Sequence record: OR786310.1
Reading direction: 5' to 3' (one strand)
DNA: 64,000 nt
Source of the DNA: Escherichia phage ETEC-TG
Shown: positions 15,593 to 64,000 of the stretch, one piece after another
Layout of the letters: each line of letters starts with the position of its first letter
Position numbering within the stretch: the first letter of the stretch is position 1
Notes under the pieces: generated by a model
The model's database searches: none
What the model saw: the letters and a program-made list of their open reading frames with translations, nothing else
Told to the model about the DNA's origin: nothing
Made by a program: the position numbers and the translations under genes

Positions 15593-16249
15593 TTAGCCTC
15601 GAAATACTGTTTTTGTTTCCGCCAGGTGCCAATAGAAATCCGCCTTGTTTACAAGAGTGTTGTACACCTCTGGATAAAAATGTTCTTCCTCTTTGTAACG
15701 ATCCGCTGTTTCCCTGATTGACTTAGCTTTATCCTTTAGCCAAGCGAAGTGTGCCTCTTCCTCTGTAGCGAAGTAGCCTAAATGCTTACCTTTACTTCCA
15801 GAAGCTTTTGCATAAATCTTACCATCTTTCCTAACATGTGCTCCTAGTAAGTATTTTCTTTCATACCTTTTAGCATAACTTAAGAGTGTATTTATGTAAG
15901 GAGGAACAAACCTACAATATTCAGGACAATAAACAGTATTTCCTTCAAGAACAAGATCTTTATCTAAAACAAAGCCTTCCACGCTATGTTCTTGATACCA
16001 GTTATCAAAGTTTGAAAAGGTGAACCAAGCATCACACACGGTAACATCTTTATAACCTGGTCTAATGTTTTCCATACGATATGCACGATTAAACATACCT
16101 TTCCAAGCTGCATAAGAAGGGTCTATGAATGTATTAACCCTTTTCCCATTGATAACACCACCTTCCCACAATCTACGTTCAACATCCACAATCAAGGGGA
16201 TTTCTCCCCTCTCTGTGAGAACGGTAACTTTACGTTTACCCTTCTTCAT
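15593..16249 (-). CDS. putative HNH-AP2 homing endonuclease (possibly degenerate)
   Basis: Sits between nrdA and nrdB; C-terminal LGYFATEEEAHFAW is AP2-like; central VLDKDLV...CPEYCRFV resembles an HNH-family core with altered catalytic residues. Confidence 0.5.
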   Translation of the reverse strand: MKKGKRKVTVLTERGEIPLIVDVERRLWEGGVINGKRVNTFIDPSYAAWKGMFNRAYRMENIRPGYKDVTVCDAWFTFSNFDNWYQEHSVEGFVLDKDLVLEGNTVYCPEYCRFVPPYINTLLSYAKRYERKYLLGAHVRKDGKIYAKASGSKGKHLGYFATEEEAHFAWLKDKAKSIRETADRYKEEEHFYPEVYNTLVNKADFYWHLAETKTVFRG

Positions 16250-16260
16250 CTGTTCTCCTA

Positions 16261-18504
16261 CTACATTTTACAGGCACTACACCCTTCGTCTTCAGAATCT
16301 TCTTGTGCTAAAGAGTCTGCTGATTTTGTTCTACTATTAAGGTAATACAACGACTTACCACCCAGTCTAGCAAAATTCAGAATAAACTGCATCTCAGCTT
16401 TCACTGATAAACGTCCACCTACCAATTTAGAATAATCTAGCCAAGAATCACAAGAAATTCCTTGGTCCGTAAACTTGGTAAAGATACCATACATTTCTGC
16501 AAGGTCTTTAGCCGGAGTGTCCCAGGCGGACTGGTAGAACATTTTCAGTTTTTCGTAGTCTGGAACAATAAATAATACACTACCTTTCTGACTTTGTTTA
16601 TACATAATAGTATCACGAACAGGATACAGAGAGTTAGTAGTATTGCTTACCAAACTGCTGGACTCATTAGGTGCGATAGCAGCCAAGACACTGTTACGGA
16701 TACCACCTTGTTCAATGATTTCAGCACGTAAGCCTTCCCAGTCCATTTTAAGATCAAAATTACCGATACTATCTACTGTTTTAGCATAAGTGTCAATTGG
16801 TAGCCAACCTTGAGGCCATTTGGTCTTATCAATCCATTCCGCATTACCTTTTTCCTTAGCCAGACGCAGAGAGGCTTTTGCCAACCAGAAGTAATGACGT
16901 TCTGCAAGTTCATGCATTAATTTTTTAGCATAAGCATCTGAATAATTTACAAAATTACTTGCCAAGTAATGCGCTAAGTTTGTAATGCCTACACCAATAG
17001 ATCTACGTGCTTTAGCAGTTATTTCGTTATGTTTAAATGGATAATCCATTGTTTCAATAACATTGTCAATTGTCAATACAGTGTAGTATGCAACATCCTC
17101 ATATTCTTCAGGTAAGACACGACCAGCAACAATAGAAGATAAGAAGCATAAAGCCAATTCTTGATCTTCTGTATTCTCCCCAGTAAAGAGATCCGGCATA
17201 CTGTGGAAAGCTTTAGTTGGTAAGAAGATCTCTTGACACAGGTTTGATTGATACACCGTATCCAGGAAAGGTGTATGGTTGTTAACGTTGTCAGCAAAGA
17301 ACATGTAAATACGTCCTGTTTCTGCACGTTGAACAATAATCTCTGTCAGAAGATCACGAGCCTTAACAAATTTTTTCTTAATGCGACGACGACTTACTTT
17401 GTCATAAACTGCATCAAACTCCTCTTCACTTTTATACAAAGCTTCATAAAGTTCAGGAGCATCATCACAACTAACTAACATCCAATCTTCGTTTTTTGCT
17501 GCTCGACGCAAGAACGAACGGTTAACAACAATAGAATAATCCAGTTTGTCTACTCGTTTATCTATAGGTGTTGTTGGATTTTTCAGTCGAATCAGATCGT
17601 CGAAGTCTGGTTCAAGTATGGTAAAGGTAACTGTAGCACTACCTCCACGGCTTGCTTGCTTCGAAGCTCCAACACTATCTTCCATCCATTTCAGATACGG
17701 AAGAAGACCACCATGAATAATACGATTATTCTTAACACCTTGACCTGTGGCACGAGTTTGAAGATTAACACCAATACCTGCGTTATTCAACGTATACTCA
17801 TGAGCTAAGTAATTAGCAATGGCTAAAGACTCTGCTGTGTCATCTGCACGGAATAAACAACAAGACGCACTTCCTTTGATTGGAGTTCGTAGAGTTGTCA
17901 GATATGGTGATGGCAGATTAATCTTAAGATCGCTAACATAAGTATACAGTTTTTTAATATCTTCTATACGGCGTTCTTTTGGTTGGATCTCCATAACCTT
18001 CATTGCGATACCAATGAAAAGAAACTGTGGAGACTCATGCACCACATCGTTTACTGCATCTCGGATAAGATATTTATCCACCATCTGACGTAAAACAGAA
18101 TAGCCATAAGTTAGATTTTTATTATGCTTTACAATCTTACCAATTTCTTTGATCTCTTCATCAGTATAATCCATTTTAGCCCAATGTCCACGTTCTACCA
18201 TATCATGATAAAAGGTATTCAGTGAAGGGATACTGTGGTATCCCCCATGAGCCTGTTTGTAAATCATACCCAGAAGAAGTCTTCCTGCCATATCACTGTA
18301 AGCTTGTGTTTTCTTGTCAATACACGCTGCAATCATTGCTTTATGCAGATCACGTGTAGACACACCGTCATAACACCGCTTCACAGCTTCTAATTCAATT
18401 TCAGACCAGTTTAGTTTACCTGCTGCAAATTCAGACCACTTGCGAAGTTTTTCTGGATTAAACTCCTCTGTCTTACCGTTAGATTTAGTTACAAAACGAA
18501 TCAA
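16261..18504 (-). CDS. nrdA: ribonucleotide reductase class Ia large subunit
   Basis: 747 aa, N-terminal ATP-cone-like region (VTKSNGKTEEFNPEKL), size and context with nrdB. Confidence 0.9.
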   Translation of the reverse strand: MIRFVTKSNGKTEEFNPEKLRKWSEFAAGKLNWSEIELEAVKRCYDGVSTRDLHKAMIAACIDKKTQAYSDMAGRLLLGMIYKQAHGGYHSIPSLNTFYHDMVERGHWAKMDYTDEEIKEIGKIVKHNKNLTYGYSVLRQMVDKYLIRDAVNDVVHESPQFLFIGIAMKVMEIQPKERRIEDIKKLYTYVSDLKINLPSPYLTTLRTPIKGSASCCLFRADDTAESLAIANYLAHEYTLNNAGIGVNLQTRATGQGVKNNRIIHGGLLPYLKWMEDSVGASKQASRGGSATVTFTILEPDFDDLIRLKNPTTPIDKRVDKLDYSIVVNRSFLRRAAKNEDWMLVSCDDAPELYEALYKSEEEFDAVYDKVSRRRIKKKFVKARDLLTEIIVQRAETGRIYMFFADNVNNHTPFLDTVYQSNLCQEIFLPTKAFHSMPDLFTGENTEDQELALCFLSSIVAGRVLPEEYEDVAYYTVLTIDNVIETMDYPFKHNEITAKARRSIGVGITNLAHYLASNFVNYSDAYAKKLMHELAERHYFWLAKASLRLAKEKGNAEWIDKTKWPQGWLPIDTYAKTVDSIGNFDLKMDWEGLRAEIIEQGGIRNSVLAAIAPNESSSLVSNTTNSLYPVRDTIMYKQSQKGSVLFIVPDYEKLKMFYQSAWDTPAKDLAEMYGIFTKFTDQGISCDSWLDYSKLVGGRLSVKAEMQFILNFARLGGKSLYYLNSRTKSADSLAQEDSEDEGCSACKM

Positions 18505-22343: not shown

Positions 22344-22384
22344 ATTTTTGTCAATAAAAAAGGGAGCAATAAGCTCCCTGATTA

Positions 22385-23344
22385 TTAGATTCCAATAATA
22401 GTTGCTGCTCGTTTATCTTTGGATCTGGTGTTTGCTCTACTACGTGACAAACCTCCACAAGATTCACAACGAATGATATCGAAAGAACTTACCGCAGTGT
22501 GGTATTGCTTACCAGTAACAACGTGAACATGATCACTGCCGCAACGAGAACAACGGACTTTCTCATCTGGGTAATAAGCGGATAAGTTAGGATGCTGTGG
22601 AATCCACGGAAGGATTTTCATATACAAATCACGAAGTGAAACAACATCACCATCATTGTAAATCTGCATACGTTCAAAAGCATCACGATCACCTTCACAA
22701 CATGCTTTCCATAAAGGGAACCCCTCGTTATCCAGTTTTTCACTTTCTGTTTCAAAATACGCTCCCATCTCTTTAAGAGAATTGGAAGGAAGTGCAAACT
22801 GTTTCTTAGCTGCCTTCAAGGTATCAACAACTACATAGTTAGAAGGTGGAGCCATATCATGATATGCGAAGCGTTGGTTAATGTATGCACGGTCAAACTT
22901 GTACCCATTGTGAGCCACAACAACATCAGCTTCATTCAGAAGATTCCAAAGATCTTGGCAAAGTTCCCAATCATCTGTATGATCGATATCGAAAAGAGGA
23001 TAAGAAGATAAGTTCTTACCTTCTACTTCACCTGTATACAAATCAGCAGAAGAGTAAGATAACAAATAACCCCTACGAATTACCTGGTCTGGAGAAATGA
23101 AGGCTTTGAATCGACGGAAAGTATATGCAATCTCTGGTGCAGTTTCAACATCAATAATTTTAATAACTGGTTGTTTCTTTTTAACTGGCTCTTGTTTACT
23201 TGCACCGAAACGTGCAAGAAAATCATTTACTGTGCTTTTTCTTGTTGGACTACCTAAAACAATTGCTGCAATATTGCGAGAAGACATACCCTCTGCACTC
23301 ATACTAAGGATATCTGCTTTCTGCTCTTCTGTTAATCTGCTCAC
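22385..23344 (-). CDS. DEDDh 3'-5' exonuclease with N-terminal HTH and C-terminal zinc ribbon
   Basis: IIDVETA (Exo I), VAHNGYKFDRAYI (Exo II) and YNDGD (Exo III); N-terminal HTH-like ILSMSAEGMSSRNIA; C-terminal CSRCG...CESCG. Confidence 0.65.
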   Translation of the reverse strand: MSRLTEEQKADILSMSAEGMSSRNIAAIVLGSPTRKSTVNDFLARFGASKQEPVKKKQPVIKIIDVETAPEIAYTFRRFKAFISPDQVIRRGYLLSYSSADLYTGEVEGKNLSSYPLFDIDHTDDWELCQDLWNLLNEADVVVAHNGYKFDRAYINQRFAYHDMAPPSNYVVVDTLKAAKKQFALPSNSLKEMGAYFETESEKLDNEGFPLWKACCEGDRDAFERMQIYNDGDVVSLRDLYMKILPWIPQHPNLSAYYPDEKVRCSRCGSDHVHVVTGKQYHTAVSSFDIIRCESCGGLSRSRANTRSKDKRAATIIGI

Positions 23345-24459
23345 TCTGCCTCCTGTTGTGAGATGTATGACTGAAGCATACTCTCAAATGTTGTATCGTC
23401 ATTATCCCAGCGTTTCATGTATACCAACTGGAAAATTGTTTCTATCCATTCATCTGTTGTCATATGGACTTCTTCTCCATCCCAAGAAGTAAAATTAACG
23501 CCATCTGGGAACCACGAGTAGTAAGTATCTTTAACTGTTTGGAAAAGTTCTGCTTGAGTTTTACAAGCTGAAAGAAGATTAAAACAAGTAATATCTCCGA
23601 ACTTAATATCAAAATCTTGATAAGGTCGGATACTATCTGTTTTATCTCCCATTAGCATCTGATAGGCTAACCAATAACTTCCCCAACCTTTAACTTCTTT
23701 CTTTTTACCTTTATCTACGATCCATATGTCGCCAATAGACTCGTCAATAAGAATTATATCTGGATTTTTAAATACTCCATCCTCTTTGTAGAAATTAAAA
23801 AGGATACTAGGAGTATGTAAACTATCTTTATCTATAGACACTACGATATAAGAAAATTTACCCGTCCTTTTATAATCTTTATAACCTTGGAAACCATACT
23901 TCTCTAACTCATCGTCAGCCTCTATTACAGTAACAACATCACCATTGTGGAACTCCACAAGATAATCTTTGGTTTCTGAAAGCTGAAGTGGTTTGATATC
24001 TAATCGTTCAGATTTATATTCTACAGGCATTTTGAAGGCGTGTCTGAAAGTTTTTCCTACGCCAATAACTCCGCAATATTTTTCTAAACGTAGATGTTTT
24101 AGAATACCTAAGACTTTTGTTTTAGCTGCTTGGAAGGTGTGTCCGATATCTTCTGGCGGGTATTGCTTATCAATAATTTCGAACTCTTCCTTTGTGAAGG
24201 GACGTTTGTTTTTGGAGGCTCTTTCTGCATTTGTATCTCCTAGCCAACCTCCAATTTTAGTCTTACTTTTACCCCAAAACTCTGTCTTATTTTTAAATTC
24301 CTTTTGAGCACCTGAAGGGATGTGCTTCGCAATGATTGTTCTTTTCTCTAATGCAGACGCTGCTTGGAAAGCGATCTGATCATAATCAATTGCAGCTATT
24401 GTTTCTTCGTTGACATATAAATGAAGATCTTCAGGTTTAATTAAAATATAACCGCTAAT
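23341..24459 (-). CDS. hypothetical protein; N-terminus weakly resembles T4 RNase H / FEN 5'-3' exonuclease; no canonical start codon
   Basis: Open frame continues about 143 codons upstream of the first ATG (MPVEY) with no ATG/GTG/TTG; AAIDYDQIAFQAASAL resembles T4 RNase H ICLIDFSQIALSTAL; candidate ATT start 4 nt after AGGGGGG. Confidence 0.4.
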   Translation of the reverse strand: MSGYILIKPEDLHLYVNEETIAAIDYDQIAFQAASALEKRTIIAKHIPSGAQKEFKNKTEFWGKSKTKIGGWLGDTNAERASKNKRPFTKEEFEIIDKQYPPEDIGHTFQAAKTKVLGILKHLRLEKYCGVIGVGKTFRHAFKMPVEYKSERLDIKPLQLSETKDYLVEFHNGDVVTVIEADDELEKYGFQGYKDYKRTGKFSYIVVSIDKDSLHTPSILFNFYKEDGVFKNPDIILIDESIGDIWIVDKGKKKEVKGWGSYWLAYQMLMGDKTDSIRPYQDFDIKFGDITCFNLLSACKTQAELFQTVKDTYYSWFPDGVNFTSWDGEEVHMTTDEWIETIFQLVYMKRWDNDDTTFESMLQSYISQQEAE

Positions 24460-24472
24460 ATTTCCCCCCTAA

Positions 24473-24682
24473 TTATTCATCGTCATCCTCTGTTGAGAAT
24501 GTTTTAGTATACGGACATTGACGACTTTTCGGGATTGCTATAACTTCATCTTGGTTAGCGTTAGAATAGTAGCAATATTTTGTGTTGCCATTAACTTCAG
24601 GATCAGACAAGATTAAAGTAATTTGACCTGCTGCTACTGTGAAACTAAAAGCTAAAAGAACGACTGTCAGAATCTTTTTCAT
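24473..24682 (-). CDS. small secreted protein
   Basis: N-terminal signal peptide MKKILTVVLLAFSFTVAAG followed by acidic tail. Confidence 0.45.
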   Translation of the reverse strand: MKKILTVVLLAFSFTVAAGQITLILSDPEVNGNTKYCYYSNANQDEVIAIPKSRQCPYTKTFSTEDDDE

Positions 24683-24754
24683 AACGCCTCCTAAAAAGCC
24701 TACCTCATTAAGTAGGTAGGCATAATATCATAACTAATCCCGCAAGTCAAGAAC

Positions 24755-43038: not shown

Positions 43039-44154
43039 GTGGCAAATACATATTTAACTAACGTAGACTTTTCAGGAAAAGCTACGGAAGAGTCACTAGG
43101 TGCTCATATTGCTTACACTTTTGATTTTCAAGGTGGAGCGGCATCTGGTTATAATACCCCCCTTTTATTTAAGTCAGACGGATCTCCAGACATAACTTTT
43201 GAAAAGTTAGAAGCTCTCACTAAAATGGGAGAAGATGTTACAGAGTTACGTAAAAGCTATATTCAACAAGTGATGGATCGCATTTCTGAAAAAGTGCGTG
43301 AAAAATTTGAAGCTGGTTGGGATTGGGTTTACGTTATTGATGCTGACTTCGATGCGAACGTTGCAATTTTCTGTTCAGATAACGGTATGTTCTCTGTTGG
43401 CTTTAAAGTTGACGGACTGAATGTTGAAGTTGAAGAGGTTGCTAAACCTGTTGTTCGTGTTACTGATTATCAAGTTGTTGATGGTGATGTAATGATCTCC
43501 ATTGATTTCTTTGAGGACGTTTTAGACGATGCTTTGAGTAATCTCGTTAAGAGTTCCTTGAAACAAAGTCAAGTTAAAGATTATTTAGTGAAAGCTCACG
43601 CTAAAGCTAATACAAACTCTGTGGATGCAGAGGCTAACCCCGCAGGTGATAAATCTGCAAACACAACTGGAATCAATAAAGGAGAAACCCCTTTGGAAAA
43701 TATCAACAAAGAAGAATTCCTGAAATCTGCTGAATTCCAAGAACTGATGAAAGCACAGATCGCTGAAGCTGTAGAAAAAGCAGCAGCAGATGCACGTGCA
43801 GCCGCAGAACTTGAAGCACAGGAAAAAATCGCTAAGGCAGAACAGGAAGCAGAAGAACTTCGTAAAGCTGAACAAGCTCGTATCGAAGAAGAATATACAA
43901 CTGTTGTTAAATCCTATTCTTTCGTAGAAGAAGACAAAGTTGAAGCTCTCGTTAAATATCTGGTAGACAATAAAGATATCGCTGAAACTATCGTCAAAGC
44001 ATTCGAAAAAGCACGTGCAGAAGTGGACGCAGTTAAGAAAGAATTTGGAACAGAACGTGGTGTTGACGTGATCAATACTCAACCTGTAGCTAAATCTTCT
44101 TCTGAACTGATTAGTCAGAAAGCTGCTGAACTTAAAAAAGCCCAGAAACAATAA
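43039..44154 (+). CDS. putative head scaffolding protein
   Basis: GTG start after RBS; 371 aa, acidic, long A/E/K-rich helical C-terminus (AAADARAAAELEAQEKIAKAEQEAEEL). Confidence 0.5.
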   Translation: MANTYLTNVDFSGKATEESLGAHIAYTFDFQGGAASGYNTPLLFKSDGSPDITFEKLEALTKMGEDVTELRKSYIQQVMDRISEKVREKFEAGWDWVYVIDADFDANVAIFCSDNGMFSVGFKVDGLNVEVEEVAKPVVRVTDYQVVDGDVMISIDFFEDVLDDALSNLVKSSLKQSQVKDYLVKAHAKANTNSVDAEANPAGDKSANTTGINKGETPLENINKEEFLKSAEFQELMKAQIAEAVEKAAADARAAAELEAQEKIAKAEQEAEELRKAEQARIEEEYTTVVKSYSFVEEDKVEALVKYLVDNKDIAETIVKAFEKARAEVDAVKKEFGTERGVDVINTQPVAKSSSELISQKAAELKKAQKQ

Positions 44155-44173
44155 TCTTAGGAGATTAAATTAA

Positions 44174-44593: not shown

Positions 44594-45595
44594 ATGCCAG
44601 CAGTAATTTTAGATCAGGTTGTAGATTTCAGCCCTATGATCGAACTTCAGGATTCCCCTGATACACTGATTGCCAGCCTGAATCTGTTCAGTGTTGACTA
44701 TCATTCAACTACCGCTATTGAAATCGGTAAAGAAAAAGCTGAAGATGCTCTGATCTCCGCTCGTGAGCGTGGTGGTGAGCGTAACTTCCTGAGCATGAAA
44801 AATCCAGAACTGAAAGCGTTCCGCATTCCGTTCTTCCCTCTGGATAAAAACATCAAAGCTCAAGATATTCAATCTTTCCGTAGCTTTGCAATGGCAGGAA
44901 TCAATGACTCTCTGCGCACAGACGCTGAAGTTGTTAACCGCTATATGTCCCAGATTCTGCGTGACGTAGCAAAAACCAAAGAGAAAATCTTTGCAGAAGC
45001 AGTTATGGGTCGTGCCTATAACGGCGTAGGTGGTGCAGCTAACTCTGCATACAACTGGTATACCGAATGGGGTGCTACCCAGAAATCTGTTGCTGTAGAC
45101 TTTGCTTCTACCACTGTTTCTCCAGCAGCCACTATCGAGAAAGAAGCTCGTGCTTACATCATCGATACTAAACAAGATGGCTCTACCGCTACTCGTATCG
45201 TAGCTCTGTGTTCTCGTGAATTTTTCGCATCTCTGGTTAACTCTCCATTTGTTCGCCAGGCATATCAGTATTTCCAGGGAACTCCTAACCTTCTGCGTGA
45301 TCGCCTTAGCGGTAACATGGATGTTCAGGTGTTCGAATGGAACGGTGTAACTTACATTGAAGATATCCACGGTAACATCCCTGCTGGTGAAGCATATGTT
45401 CTGCCTATGGGTATCGAAGGTATGTTCCAGGCGCACTACGCTCCTGCGGATACTCCAGAACTGGCTAACACCCAGGCTCGTGAACTGTATACCTTCATGA
45501 TCAGCCAGCACCGCACTATTCAGCTTCAGTCTGAATTCTCGCTGCTCGCAGTTAACACCCGTCCAGAACTGGTAGTTAAACTGACTACGGCTTAA
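44594..45595 (+). CDS. major capsid protein
   Basis: 333 aa, strong RBS, highly biased codon usage, followed by a terminator; position after scaffold/decoration genes. Confidence 0.7.
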   Translation: MPAVILDQVVDFSPMIELQDSPDTLIASLNLFSVDYHSTTAIEIGKEKAEDALISARERGGERNFLSMKNPELKAFRIPFFPLDKNIKAQDIQSFRSFAMAGINDSLRTDAEVVNRYMSQILRDVAKTKEKIFAEAVMGRAYNGVGGAANSAYNWYTEWGATQKSVAVDFASTTVSPAATIEKEARAYIIDTKQDGSTATRIVALCSREFFASLVNSPFVRQAYQYFQGTPNLLRDRLSGNMDVQVFEWNGVTYIEDIHGNIPAGEAYVLPMGIEGMFQAHYAPADTPELANTQARELYTFMISQHRTIQLQSEFSLLAVNTRPELVVKLTTA

Positions 45596-45617
45596 TAGAA
45601 CTCTGTTAAGATTAGAG

Positions 45618-45647
45618 GCTCGTCCGTGATGGGCGAGCCTTTTCTGT
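45618..45647 (+). terminator. intrinsic terminator after major capsid gene
   Basis: GGCTCG...CGAGCC hairpin followed by TTTTCTGTTT. Confidence 0.55.
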
Positions 45648-45679
45648 TTACAATAAGAGTTTACAACGAGGAGATTGAT

Positions 45680-46024
45680 ATGTCAAACCCAGAATTGAAA
45701 CGTTACTTTAGTTATCACGAAATGATTCGTGATTTCGAATCGCTTTCACCACTGATCGATGCTGATAAAACATTAGTATCTGCGCCACCAATGTCTTTCT
45801 ATCTGAAAGATGGTCGTATTGCATTAGGTGGAAACTTCATTCACTTCCTCACGCGTTTGAGAGAAGAAACAGGTATTCTTGTGCATCCTTTTGCAAGTGA
45901 AGAACACATGGGTTACTATCTTGTAAGTTACGAAGACTATGCACCTGTAAAAATCAAAGAAGAAGTTTTAAAAGTAGAAGCGGTAGACACTCCAGCTAAA
46001 AAACGTTCCCTTCGTAAAAAATAA
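45680..46024 (+). CDS. hypothetical structural protein
   Basis: Start at MSNPELKRY preceded by GAGGAG; the track ATG at 45626 lies inside the terminator hairpin. Confidence 0.4.
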   Translation: MSNPELKRYFSYHEMIRDFESLSPLIDADKTLVSAPPMSFYLKDGRIALGGNFIHFLTRLREETGILVHPFASEEHMGYYLVSYEDYAPVKIKEEVLKVEAVDTPAKKRSLRKK

Positions 46025-46033
46025 GGTGGGCTT

Positions 46034-46582
46034 ATGCTGAATGCGGTAGAGTTGGCACCACTGATCCGAATTCTTGTTTATAACCCTTCTCAAGAAGTAT
46101 TGCCAGATGCAATGCTGATTCAGATCATCCAAACTTGGATTGATATTATAGGGAATGAAGATAAGGATAAGTGTGCAGTATTGTGGAACAGCTTGATTTC
46201 TGTTTTAGAGTATTTATGGAACAACGATGTTCTTAACAATAGTACTCAAACAGGAGGAGCTATGTCCCGCAGAGAAAAGATGGGTGAAGTCGAAGTTGAA
46301 GTTAAATTTAACAACGGTCAAGTAACTTATAAGTCTCCGTGGGAAGATATCTATCATAACTATTTAAATGGTCTTATGGTCATTCCTGGGTGCACGGCAG
46401 GACGAGGGGCAACCAGTAAAGTTCTTATTGGCGGTGTTGATGCTCGTGAGATTGATCGAGTAAACAGCGATCCTAACTCTGTGAATGGTCTTGGTAATGT
46501 TGCAAGTGTTGATCGTAATACCCGCAACGTTAATTATTTGCGAAATTACGGACCTGTTTCTTTTTATCGTAGGGACAAATAA
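46034..46582 (+). CDS. hypothetical structural protein
   Basis: 182 aa ORF in head-tail joining position. Confidence 0.4.
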   Translation: MLNAVELAPLIRILVYNPSQEVLPDAMLIQIIQTWIDIIGNEDKDKCAVLWNSLISVLEYLWNNDVLNNSTQTGGAMSRREKMGEVEVEVKFNNGQVTYKSPWEDIYHNYLNGLMVIPGCTAGRGATSKVLIGGVDAREIDRVNSDPNSVNGLGNVASVDRNTRNVNYLRNYGPVSFYRRDK

Positions 46583-47070
46583 TGGAAAGTGAGATCTTAC
46601 CAGGTGACGATACAGATTGGGAAACCATTATCAAAAAGATGATGGACCTTGAACAAGTTCAAATCGAAGCTGGTTTTTTAACAAACAAAAGGCATCCTGA
46701 ATCAGATCTCACTATTCCTGCAATAGCAGCTATTCAACAATATGGTAATGAAACAAATAACATACCTGCTCGTCCTTTTATAACAGATGGTGCTGTTATC
46801 TCACAGAACAATATCGCTAAAAAGATGAAGCAGGTTTTTGCAAATTACCTAATGAACAATGTCGGATTAGCTGTTTTTGAGCCTATAGCGAGAGCCTCTA
46901 GAGAAGGAATAGCTCAAGCGATTGCAATGCAACGTTATCGTCCTTTATCTCCTGTGACAATTAAGATACGACAAGATAAAGGCAACTATTCTAATCATAT
47001 CTTAATAGATACGGCATATATGATAAATGCAATCGAAACAAAAATCACAAAAAGCAAGTCTAAAAAATAA
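46582..47070 (+). CDS. hypothetical structural protein
   Basis: 162 aa ORF, ATGA overlap with upstream gene. Confidence 0.4.
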   Translation: MESEILPGDDTDWETIIKKMMDLEQVQIEAGFLTNKRHPESDLTIPAIAAIQQYGNETNNIPARPFITDGAVISQNNIAKKMKQVFANYLMNNVGLAVFEPIARASREGIAQAIAMQRYRPLSPVTIKIRQDKGNYSNHILIDTAYMINAIETKITKSKSKK

Positions 47071-62045: not shown

Positions 62046-64000
62046 ATGTCAACTACAATTACTAATTTACCCGAAACATCAAAAGTTAATGGTTCTGATT
62101 ACCTGGTTTTAGACCAACCTGATAAGACTGTTAAAAGCACAGTTTCCAACTTTCTTACTGACACTGGGGTGGTTTTAGCCACCCAGTTGAAAGATACAGA
62201 TGGAGCTACCAAGTATCCAGAACTTCAGATTGCACGCTGGCGAGACGAGGGAGATATCAGAGGGTGGGGCACGGAAACAAACGGTGATGTTACCGAAGCA
62301 ATCATTGAGGCGGTAGCGGCGACAAGCGGCACTATCATTGTGCCACCTGGTGACTATGTTGCCACACCTACGCTGGCCGAAGTTCCGGCTGTGCTGAAAT
62401 TGCTGTCCCGCGCTGATTTTCGTGGCAGGTTGACCATTAATCTGCCAGCTGGGACGGTCAATCTGAACGAGCAGACAGTCATAAATTCTAACAGGAGTAA
62501 TCTGTGCAAGGTCATTGGCGTAGCGCTAAACACGAGCGTTACAGGGCTTGTTTCTGTAGCTGGGTCAAGCAAGCAATATTCGATAACTCTGTCCCTGGCA
62601 GATGCCTCGCAGGTGTCAGTCGGTGACTATGCCATCTTCAGGCACGATCTGACGGGAACTGGTTTTTTCCACATACACTGCGGGGGCTGGCGGGTAACGG
62701 CTGTGTCCGGCAATAACGTGACCGTGCTCAACACATGCGTCTTGGATTCATTCCCTTCGTCAACCGTTACCGGTGGATCAGTCTCCATTATCAAGTCCGT
62801 TCTGAAATACACCGGCTGTGATGGGATTAGACCGGAGGGCGGCGACTGTATCGGAATTATTGATAATGTCGCCATCGTGGGTGATTACAACCTTGCTACC
62901 GGCGCAGGGACAATCGGTGCTCACGGCGTAATATCCTCAACACCCGTAGTAGTCACCGACGCCGCCAACGCATCCAACAACGTAGCGAATATGGCGGCAG
63001 CGCTGGCCCTGGGACGAAATATTGCAATCAGTGCCTGGGGTGAGCAAGGGCTGGCAGTGTCGGGTCGCTCTGCGCTTGTGTGTAACTTCATCGCATCCTG
63101 TGCCAACCGTAAGCGTGGTATTTATGCGGAAGGTGCTCATATACGCGGGAAATTTATGATCGCCTCCGGAAACGGAGAGGACGGCATTATTTCAGATACC
63201 ACTGGATTTGTGCAGGCTGCATATGCCGTTTGCTCGGGTAACGGATTAAACGGGTTCTGGTCAACAAACCTCTCTCTTATTGCGGCGGCAAGGGGAGTGG
63301 CTTGCTGTAACAAAACAAATGGTGTGGAGGCAAGGGGGCAGACAAGGCTCGCATTTGATCTCGGCCTTTCCTACGGAAACGTTCTAAACGGTGTCAGCGC
63401 CTCTGATGGGGGCATGATTGACTTTGATGGCGGCATGTCAAGAGACAATCTCGTTGACGGGATCGCAGCGACATACAATGCAGTAGTTGACGCGAACAAC
63501 GCCTCCAGTACCACCAATGGTCGTTACGGTACTAACGTGACCTCCGCGTGCATTATCATTTCAGGGACTGGTACTATATCTGGGAATACAGGGGCGGATG
63601 TTCGTGATAACGGCAATGGGATGGTTGTCCGACCAGACGGCACGATCTACCCATTCACTGGGGTCGCACAGGGTAATCTGTCGCTAAGAAACACCGTCAG
63701 CGGCGCGGGGGTTGACATTGTTCCTACAAGTATAGGTGACTTAATTCTGAGCTTTAAAAACTCAGCAGGCGGAACGCTTAACCCGTTATACAACTTCAAA
63801 GCCGACGGTACTCAGTACCCTCAAAATGACGCGACGCAAAGCCTTGGGCGTGCCGCTAACCGATACAATGTCGGTTTCTTCGCTGGCGGAACACAGTCAA
63901 CTTCAGATGCCACACTTAAAGACCCTATCCGGGAGTTCAATCAGGCCGAACTTAATGCAGCAATGCGAATCGCAAAAATGCTGGGTTTCTGGACATGGCT
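62046..64000 (+). CDS. tail fibre/tailspike protein, 3' end beyond window; GC-rich distal module
   Basis: RBS TAGGAG, N-terminal adapter-like motif, then from about 62290 visibly GC-rich and Gly/Ala/Thr/Asn-rich sequence; open to the window end. Confidence 0.55.
   Translation, partial: MSTTITNLPETSKVNGSDYLVLDQPDKTVKSTVSNFLTDTGVVLATQLKDTDGATKYPELQIARWRDEGDIRGWGTETNGDVTEAIIEAVAATSGTIIVPPGDYVATPTLAEVPAVLKLLSRADFRGRLTINLPAGTVNLNEQTVINSNRSNLCKVIGVALNTSVTGLVSVAGSSKQYSITLSLADASQVSVGDYAIFRHDLTGTGFFHIHCGGWRVTAVSGNNVTVLNTCVLDSFPSSTVTGGSVSIIKSVLKYTGCDGIRPEGGDCIGIIDNVAIVGDYNLATGAGTIGAHGVISSTPVVVTDAANASNNVANMAAALALGRNIAISAWGEQGLAVSGRSALVCNFIASCANRKRGIYAEGAHIRGKFMIASGNGEDGIISDTTGFVQAAYAVCSGNGLNGFWSTNLSLIAAARGVACCNKTNGVEARGQTRLAFDLGLSYGNVLNGVSASDGGMIDFDGGMSRDNLVDGIAATYNAVVDANNASSTTNGRYGTNVTSACIIISGTGTISGNTGADVRDNGNGMVVRPDGTIYPFTGVAQGNLSLRNTVSGAGVDIVPTSIGDLILSFKNSAGGTLNPLYNFKADGTQYPQNDATQSLGRAANRYNVGFFAGGTQSTSDATLKDPIREFNQAELNAAMRIAKMLGFWTW

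Follow-up and report, generated by a model that had tools for sequence, protein, structure and literature searches.

The gene at 23341..24459 on the minus strand of a 64,000-nucleotide stretch of Escherichia phage ETEC-TG DNA (record OR786310.1; the whole stretch is referred to here as the window) is, with high confidence, one intact 372-residue gene encoding a flap endonuclease (FEN)-type 5'-3' exonuclease of the family that includes T5 D15, T4 RNase H and the 5' nuclease domain of Pol I. Comparison with related start regions indicates that its initiation codon is very likely an ATT (24459..24457), and the doubt that remains about the start mostly concerns the exact codon. The source of the window is a Phapecoctavirus (a phAPEC8-like myovirus, subfamily Stephanstirmvirinae). 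Around the nuclease gene, a 1.5-kb segment shares 99.9% identity with Escherichia phage anhysbys, and matches at 95% or above are found in 64 phage records. The features of the gene are as follows.

23341..24459, minus strand: complete coding sequence (CDS) of the 372-residue flap-endonuclease-like 5'-3' exonuclease, with predicted ATT start and TGA stop at 23343..23341.
24457..24459, minus strand: putative ATT initiation codon, which would be read as formylmethionine (fMet); first near-cognate codon after the in-frame TAG.
24464..24470, minus strand: Shine-Dalgarno element AGGGGGG, followed by the 4-nucleotide spacer AAAT (24463..24460).
24031..24456, minus strand: codons 2-143, the "extension" absent from most annotations, comprising the first FEN strand, which carries IDYD, and also an inserted subdomain and the first part of the FRH..YK..R motif.
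24028..24030, minus strand: internal ATG (Met144), taken in error as the start in most database records, inside TFRHAFK-M-PVEYKSER (FRH..YK..R motif).

The frame containing the peptide MPVEY is open on the minus strand from 24468 to the TGA at 23343..23341, a length of 375 codons, and is bounded on its 5' side by an in-frame TAG (24471..24469). Across the proposed start, the sequence reads TAA-TTAG-GGGGG-AAAT-ATT-AGC-GGT-TAT. In the nuclease frame, the earliest ATG, GTG or TTG codon is the ATG at 24030, which is preceded by 143 codons when counted from the ATT and by 146 when counted from the in-frame stop. A run of 146 stop-free codons would occur by chance with P ~7.5e-5 at the local base composition. 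The window has 97 open stretches of 100 codons or more, with a median start-less lead of 6 codons, and the lead of the nuclease frame is the longest. ATG, GTG and TTG account for about 5% of the codons in genuine coding sequence of ETEC-TG, and no 143-codon window devoid of them is found in the other long open reading frames (ORFs) of the window (0/7648; binomial P ~7e-4). Because it features 143 codons without ATG, GTG or TTG, which is unmatched in the other long ORFs of the phage, the gene defeats standard gene callers.

Five other long start-less stretches were considered and rejected (62175..62525, 43596..43913 and 44705..45682 on the minus strand, 16016..16345 and 17479..17808 on the plus strand), as all overlap longer open frames. 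In four of the five, the longer frame is located on the opposite strand, and the stretches are antisense shadows. The stretch at 43596..43913 also lies inside a 194-codon open stretch of the same strand (43588..44169). The nuclease frame appears to be the sole such case in the window.

Several lines of evidence support the coding nature of the 143 upstream codons. Searches with tblastn using the 372-residue translation matched 1379 phage records, 900 of which contain a single match covering at least 80% of the query. Records with full-length matches include those of rV5-like, Mydovirus, PAK_P5-like and ICP1 phages, in which the gene is annotated at full length as an exodeoxyribonuclease. When codons 2-143 are compared with relatives at 75-83% identity, differences are concentrated at third codon positions (34, 18 and 64 differences at positions 1, 2 and 3 in the locus L012, 42, 29 and 82 in another relative, and similar figures in the others), a bias that we read as the signature of purifying selection in the nuclease frame. 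Lineages with as little as 50% identity have no stop in the upstream part, and the extension alone matches PHROG 107 (E 5e-7). In an alignment of 44 homologues, D25 (codon 24387..24385, minus strand, within IDYD), R139, Y148 and K149, which lie within the extension or in a motif spanning its end, are invariant, as are E180, D182, D183, D210, K211, D212, D272 and D275 further downstream; D27 is nearly invariant and R152 is similarly conserved (each at least 90%).

An AlphaFold2 model built on the family alignment has a mean predicted local distance difference test score (pLDDT) of 96.1 and a predicted template modelling score (pTM) of 0.90 over all 372 residues, and features core strands and helices at residues 16-37 and 127-141. 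Without the extension, the PIN-like nuclease core would lack catalytic and structural elements that it needs in order to form. Orthologues that have a canonical start have it where the alignment places the ATT (MGYP.. versus I-SGY..), and no GGAG-like motif is found in the 20 nucleotides 5' of the ATG at 24030. An earlier note, made from the sequence of the window alone, had described the frame as open, without ATG, GTG or TTG, back to the stop of the neighbouring gene, and its coordinates and description are exact. It had also judged the stop-free length unlikely by chance and the upstream region probably coding, and both views are borne out by the probability given above, by the 900 full-length records, by the third-position bias and by the quality of the model. 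The alignment of orthologues that it proposed for locating their start codons was run, and these starts align with the ATT and not with the MPVEY-equivalent position.

Start regions were compared among loci (designated by L numbers) from GenBank phages, IMG/VR contigs and metagenome contigs. The start count leaves out L079, L080, L082 and L083, which are the most distant, lack a Shine-Dalgarno element and have unreliable automated start picks, and L060, in which an ATG located one codon downstream is a more likely start than the automated pick. In 16 lineages at 50-100% protein identity, the codon at the start site is ATT (8 lineages), ATC (4), ATA (3) or CTG (1), and in none is it ATG, GTG or TTG. 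In these lineages, the start-site codon is located 4-5 nucleotides after GGAGG, AGGAGG or GGGGG, or after a weaker GGAGA in L030. The AGGGGGG sequence of the window is replaced in relatives by GGAGG(T/G/A) at the same distance from the start codon. GGAGG followed by 4 nucleotides is also the modal Shine-Dalgarno spacing in the window (13 of 23 genes), the genes of which cluster at 4-5 nucleotides. Directly after the start-site codon, a conserved peptide, (S)GY/F..., is found across lineages. The codon on its 5' side is unconstrained, and may be AAT, AGT, AAG, AAA, AAC, TTA or ATT. In two relatives, an in-frame stop abuts the start-site codon (TAA-ATC in L016, TAG-TTG in L031), and there is therefore no room for a start further upstream. 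The RNA structure around the start is not notable (z = -0.17 versus shuffles). The ATT at 24457..24459, four nucleotides after AGGGGGG, had been put forward in the earlier note as a candidate for initiation, and the series of near-cognate codons found at the same site behind a conserved Shine-Dalgarno element argues for that choice.

Vequintavirinae-like orthologues (37-47% identity) feature TTG, GTG or ATG at the same site, and ATG is found in more distant relatives. Shine-Dalgarno spacing in distant orthologues is mostly 4-6 nucleotides, and 7 nucleotides in PAK_P5. In L053-L072, which are Vequintavirinae-like loci at 40-43% identity, the start alternates between ATG, GTG and TTG at one position (x-G-Y-P...). 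Approximately 75% of the other genes of the window start with ATG. In two phage subfamilies, the start codon of the nuclease gene seems to be more labile, or weaker, than usual. In some relatives, ATG codons are found close to the Shine-Dalgarno element. For instance, an out-of-frame ATG lies directly against it in seven IMG/VR contigs at ~65% identity (L045-L050 and L052; AGGAGGATGTT-ATT), and Mydovirus KNP2 has an in-frame ATG one nucleotide after GGAGG, followed by TTG (GGAGGA-ATG-TTG). These ATGs are too near the Shine-Dalgarno element to be likely starts, and could compete with the start-site codon.

The length of the G-run varies among near-identical Phapecoctavirus genomes. Five Gs are found in most, including phAPEC8, anhysbys and ESCO13, six in the window, PNJ1809-36, vB_EcoM_01 and 536P1, and seven in BI-EHEC (L001, L036, L037 and L038 were compared). 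The polymorphism may be real or may be homopolymer sequencing noise; in either case, the nuclease ORF shifts in phase relative to the upstream ORF. The occurrence of five, six or seven Gs marks the run as probably non-coding, as an indel of this type would be lethal inside a coding sequence.

The predicted protein has the PIN-like alpha/beta nuclease core of the FEN superfamily, with an H3TH DNA-binding module after it. Structural comparisons gave figures of 16.8 with the plastid exonuclease 9l55, 15.2 with M. smegmatis FenA, 14.8 with E. coli ExoIX, 14.4 with the T5 5'-exonuclease and 13.5 with T4 RNase H (1tfr). Foldseek assigned a probability of 1.0 to the matches with T5 FEN and ExoIX, and the protein matches PHROG 107 ("exonuclease") with E 1.4e-55. 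Motifs shared with T5 D15, T4 RNase H, ExoIX, FenA and the Pol I domain (I-D-x-D, FRH..YK..R, EADD, S-x-DKD and GDxxD) are all present in the ETEC-TG nuclease, as is the Y-K-x-x-R motif at the base of the helical arch (Y148 and K149 invariant, R152 in at least 90% of homologues). In contrast, identity to the known FEN enzymes is 12-20% over ~210 aligned residues of 372. The ~150 residues outside the alignment look, from the secondary-structure map, like insertions at ~39-100 and ~218-260 and a C-terminal extension.

At the N-terminus, T4 rnh reads ...EGICLIDFSQIALSTAL. Local alignment of the first 60 residues of the two proteins pairs ETIAAIDYDQIAFQAA with EGICLIDFSQIALSTA and places D25 opposite T4 D19; its score is 41, compared with 21 +/- 4.2 in the shuffle control, in which 0 of 500 shuffles reach 41. 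The likeness to the N-terminus of T4 RNase H that the earlier note had reported is therefore sustained by this score, and the sequence that it quoted is accurate, but T4 RNase H is not the nearest structural relative, as higher scores are obtained with 5' nucleases of bacterial, plastid and T5 type.

A number of observations weigh against the family assignment and against the proposed start. A Pfam scan of the full protein and of both halves returned no nuclease-family match at E <= 1, and within the family PF02739 matches 13 of 44 members only (best E 1.7e-6) and PF01367 matches one. Sequence-profile searches gave no matches to PDB chains or solved structures. Alignment of the family profile with T4 RNase H by hhalign is weak (E 1.6e-3, probability 16%) and covers the central motifs FRH..YK..R, EADD and S-DKD, leaving the N-terminal motif outside; EADD and S-DKD align with T4 EADD and SDGD, and Y-K-x-x-R aligns with T4 YYKKNR. 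The metal-binding residues of T4 RNase H are D19, D71, E130, D132, D155, D157, D197 and D200. The position of T4 D71 is not acidic in the phage protein, aligning to IGVG (Gly/Val; residues 130-137, window ~24049..24072, minus strand), and is not conserved in the family. As for the start, the N-terminus at the ATT is one that we infer only, and two further in-frame ATT codons are located at 24447 and 24441 (4 and 6 codons downstream), so that the exact initiation codon is not proven.

D27 might substitute for the missing equivalent of T4 D71, and the metal site of this FEN subfamily may be built differently. Some distant homologues have precomputed PF02739 assignments. The window protein does not reach the Pfam gathering threshold for PF02739 or PF01367 and, because it lies below that threshold, its FEN membership rests on fold and motifs, as a divergent subfamily (PHROG 107).

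Other explanations of the start-less frame were weighed. The real product could be a 229-residue protein translated from the ATG at 24030, with the upstream 143 codons as an untranslated remnant, i.e., a 5'-truncated pseudogene or a decaying N-terminus. This ATG is the sole canonical start in the frame up to that point, it is the start chosen in anhysbys, iGC_PHA_EC001, Ro121lw, EF1-1 and KKP_3264, and the 229-residue form is found on >385 contigs. However, the codon lies inside the conserved FRH..YK..R motif and lacks a Shine-Dalgarno element, whereas the part upstream of it is stop-free down to 50% identity, evolves with third-position-biased substitutions and holds the invariant D25 and R139 together with core strands of the nuclease fold. 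Moreover, N-termini called in the clade are ragged (MEKR.., MAFQ.., MIDY.., MHKY..), as expected of arbitrary internal starts. The truncated form, which the earlier note had listed as an alternative, is contradicted by selection, structure and motif content, and we regard it as very improbable. The second alternative of that note, a homopolymer sequencing error in GGGGGG that hides a canonical start or continuity with the upstream frame, draws on the proneness of homopolymers to error and on the six Gs of the window, compared with five in most relatives. Yet the G-run is located 5' of the ATT, no length of the run creates a canonical start, and stops occur in all three frames just upstream (TGA 24481..24479, TAA 24475..24473 and TAG 24471..24469). 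The downstream ORF is unchanged in genomes with 5, 6 or 7 Gs, and a canonical start is equally absent from relatives that have GGAGGT where the homopolymer would be. Such an error is scarcely credible as the cause.

The nuclease might also be made as a fusion with an upstream 69-residue ORF, by stop-codon readthrough or programmed frameshifting. The stop of that ORF is 13 nucleotides from the ATT, its TAA shares the frame of the nuclease ORF in 5-G genomes, and a 444-residue database protein (P0005) resembles such a fusion. These points are offset by the phase between the two ORFs, which varies (+1 in the window, no offset in 5-G genomes and the third phase in phi92-like phages), by the signal-peptide-like N-terminus of the 69-residue protein, which is unsuited to a replication nuclease, and by the rV5 and PAK_P5 orthologues, which have their own canonical starts at the site. 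A fusion is extremely unlikely. P0005 itself (L024 601..1935, Logan contig SRR30397360_28145) was rejected as an artefact in which the gene caller evidently read the TAG between the two ORFs as sense, and translation of the locus does not give the query. The lack of a canonical start probably helped to bring about the choice of a code in which TAG is sense. The variation of the G-run (5, 6 or 7) and the closure of three frames upstream exclude sequencing error, pseudogene and fusion. Non-canonical initiation could finally take place at another near-cognate codon, such as the ATT at 24447 (codon 5) or at 24441 (codon 7), both of which share the frame and are near the Shine-Dalgarno element. These codons lie 16 and 22 nucleotides from the G-run, in contrast with the 4-5 nucleotides at which the genes of the phage cluster, and codon 5 is not near-cognate in L027 (AAA) or in L017 and L018 (GAA), whereas codon 1 is near-cognate in every lineage. 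We therefore consider a downstream ATT an improbable start, and the ATT at 24459..24457 is retained as the predicted one.

The gene-start call is already known at the database level, and both AUU initiation and the FEN family are well known. A "putative exonuclease" of Escherichia phage ESCO13 (AQM50955.1 / YP_009786567.1; KX552041.2, CDS 45700..46818) is an identical 372-residue protein, annotated from the same ATT with a ribosome-binding site feature on the G-run, which has five Gs versus six in the window. The UniRef100 cluster of the identical protein (A0A1Q1N971) has 12 Phapecoctavirus entries. The start codon of the exonuclease gene is unmentioned in the ESCO13 genome announcement, and we found no description of an ATT start in the literature on Phapecoctavirus, ESCO13 and phage exonucleases. 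That near-cognate codons alternate at one fixed site throughout the clade appears to be undocumented.

Seven of the eight Stephanstirmvirinae-like records inspected shorten the gene to 229, 286 or 344 residues, and two add spurious ORFs in the gap. Met144 is the annotated start in anhysbys, iGC_PHA_EC001, Ro121lw, EF1-1 and KKP_3264. The spurious CDSs are found in Ro121lw (L004 970..1092) and vB_Eco_PATM (L006 402..626, minus strand); one is a 40-residue ORF, and the other an antisense "putative exonuclease". Relatives with a non-canonical start contain few in-frame ATG, GTG or TTG codons near the 5' end of the gene, the first being found at codon positions 16-83 or later. Four records (MG065650.1, MG065659.1, OP562383.1 and MH252123.1) carry Campylobacter, Acinetobacter or Klebsiella labels, yet are 98.6-99.2% identical in this region to E. 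coli Phapecoctavirus or rV5-like phages, and their host labels look doubtful.

The nuclease gene maps within a replication and recombination cluster, beside RdgC and a 3'-5' exonuclease. The neighbouring features are listed below.

24750..24722, minus strand: promoter-like site upstream of the 69-residue ORF (consensus match only).
24721..24698, minus strand: terminator-like hairpin upstream of the 69-residue ORF (consensus match only).
24473..24682, minus strand: 69-residue ORF with a signal-peptide-like N-terminus and a TAA stop at 24475..24473 (PHROG 4641, E 2.6e-26).
22385..23344, minus strand: 319-residue 3'-5' exonuclease, annotated as "DNA polymerase exonuclease subunit" (PHROG 403, E 6.8e-107).
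22361..22379, minus strand: terminator-like hairpin after the 319-residue gene (consensus match only).

The 69-residue ORF, which ends 13 nucleotides before the ATT, is kept upstream of the nuclease gene in relatives and is a possible translational-coupling partner of the nuclease. At the other end, the nuclease stop overlaps the GTG start of the 319-residue gene as GTGA (23341..23344, minus strand), which suggests translational coupling of the nuclease to that gene. Together, these elements suggest a three-gene unit consisting of the 69-residue ORF, the nuclease gene and the 319-residue gene, bounded by the consensus-match elements.

In the mechanism that we propose, the strong Shine-Dalgarno element would position the 30S subunit at the AUU. 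Judging from E. coli biology, fMet-tRNA would pair imperfectly with this codon and initiate with a reduced efficiency that is sensitive to initiation factor 3 (IF3). Discrimination of IF3 against AUU complexes would result in low nuclease output, for which the strong Shine-Dalgarno element, possibly with ribosomes terminating on the 69-residue ORF, would compensate in part. On balance, a nuclease that is potentially toxic would deliberately be made in small amounts. Keeping a potentially harmful nuclease scarce is a plausible rationale for a weak start. Selection of a weak codon for low expression is nonetheless something that we infer, and mere tolerance of drift is possible.

In E. coli, IF3 discriminates against AUU, AUC, AUA and CUG start codons, and pcnB is the only gene besides infC with an AUU start (PMC5499595). 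The infC gene, which encodes IF3, likewise features a non-canonical start of the AUU class (AUU or AUC) that is phylogenetically conserved behind a Shine-Dalgarno element. In infC, however, the AUU serves autoregulation by the product of the gene itself, whereas the phage product is a nuclease and any IF3 dependence would be imposed by the host. The phage start codon, in contrast to that of infC, also drifts to AUA and CUG. In pcnB, which encodes poly(A) polymerase I, a weak start holds at a low level an enzyme that acts on nucleic acids and does harm when too abundant, and a similar logic is proposed for the phage nuclease from its AUU start. The pcnB protein is unrelated, the gene is chromosomal and not viral, and toxicity of the phage nuclease is assumed. 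Like the infC and pcnB starts, that of the phage gene combines coding sequence upstream of every in-frame AUG, GUG and UUG, a Shine-Dalgarno element at a functional distance, and a conserved near-cognate codon next to unconstrained 5' sequence. In the neighbouring Vequintavirinae-like clade, the nuclease gene starts mostly with UUG or GUG. It is possible, although we hold it only tentatively, that the Stephanstirmvirinae-like clade has kept IF3-discriminated starts by selection, as a translational throttle or a sensor coupling nuclease output to the initiation-factor state of the host, possibly with reinitiation from the 69-residue ORF.

Most phAPEC8-like and phi92-like genomes annotate a fragment of 229-344 residues, which in our view is non-functional. 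Gene callers limited to ATG, GTG and TTG will keep spreading this truncation of the nuclease, and ragged N-termini are already present in protein databases. The phenomenon is a known one, no new mechanism is revealed, and the interest of the case is modest. The gene provides a clean natural example in which, over deep divergence, the near-cognates of AUG have replaced one another as the start codon while the distance to a strong Shine-Dalgarno element stayed fixed. It is a convenient system for asking whether weak initiation has been selected to limit a nuclease. A selected weak start, if true, would be a viral analogue of the infC and pcnB logic.

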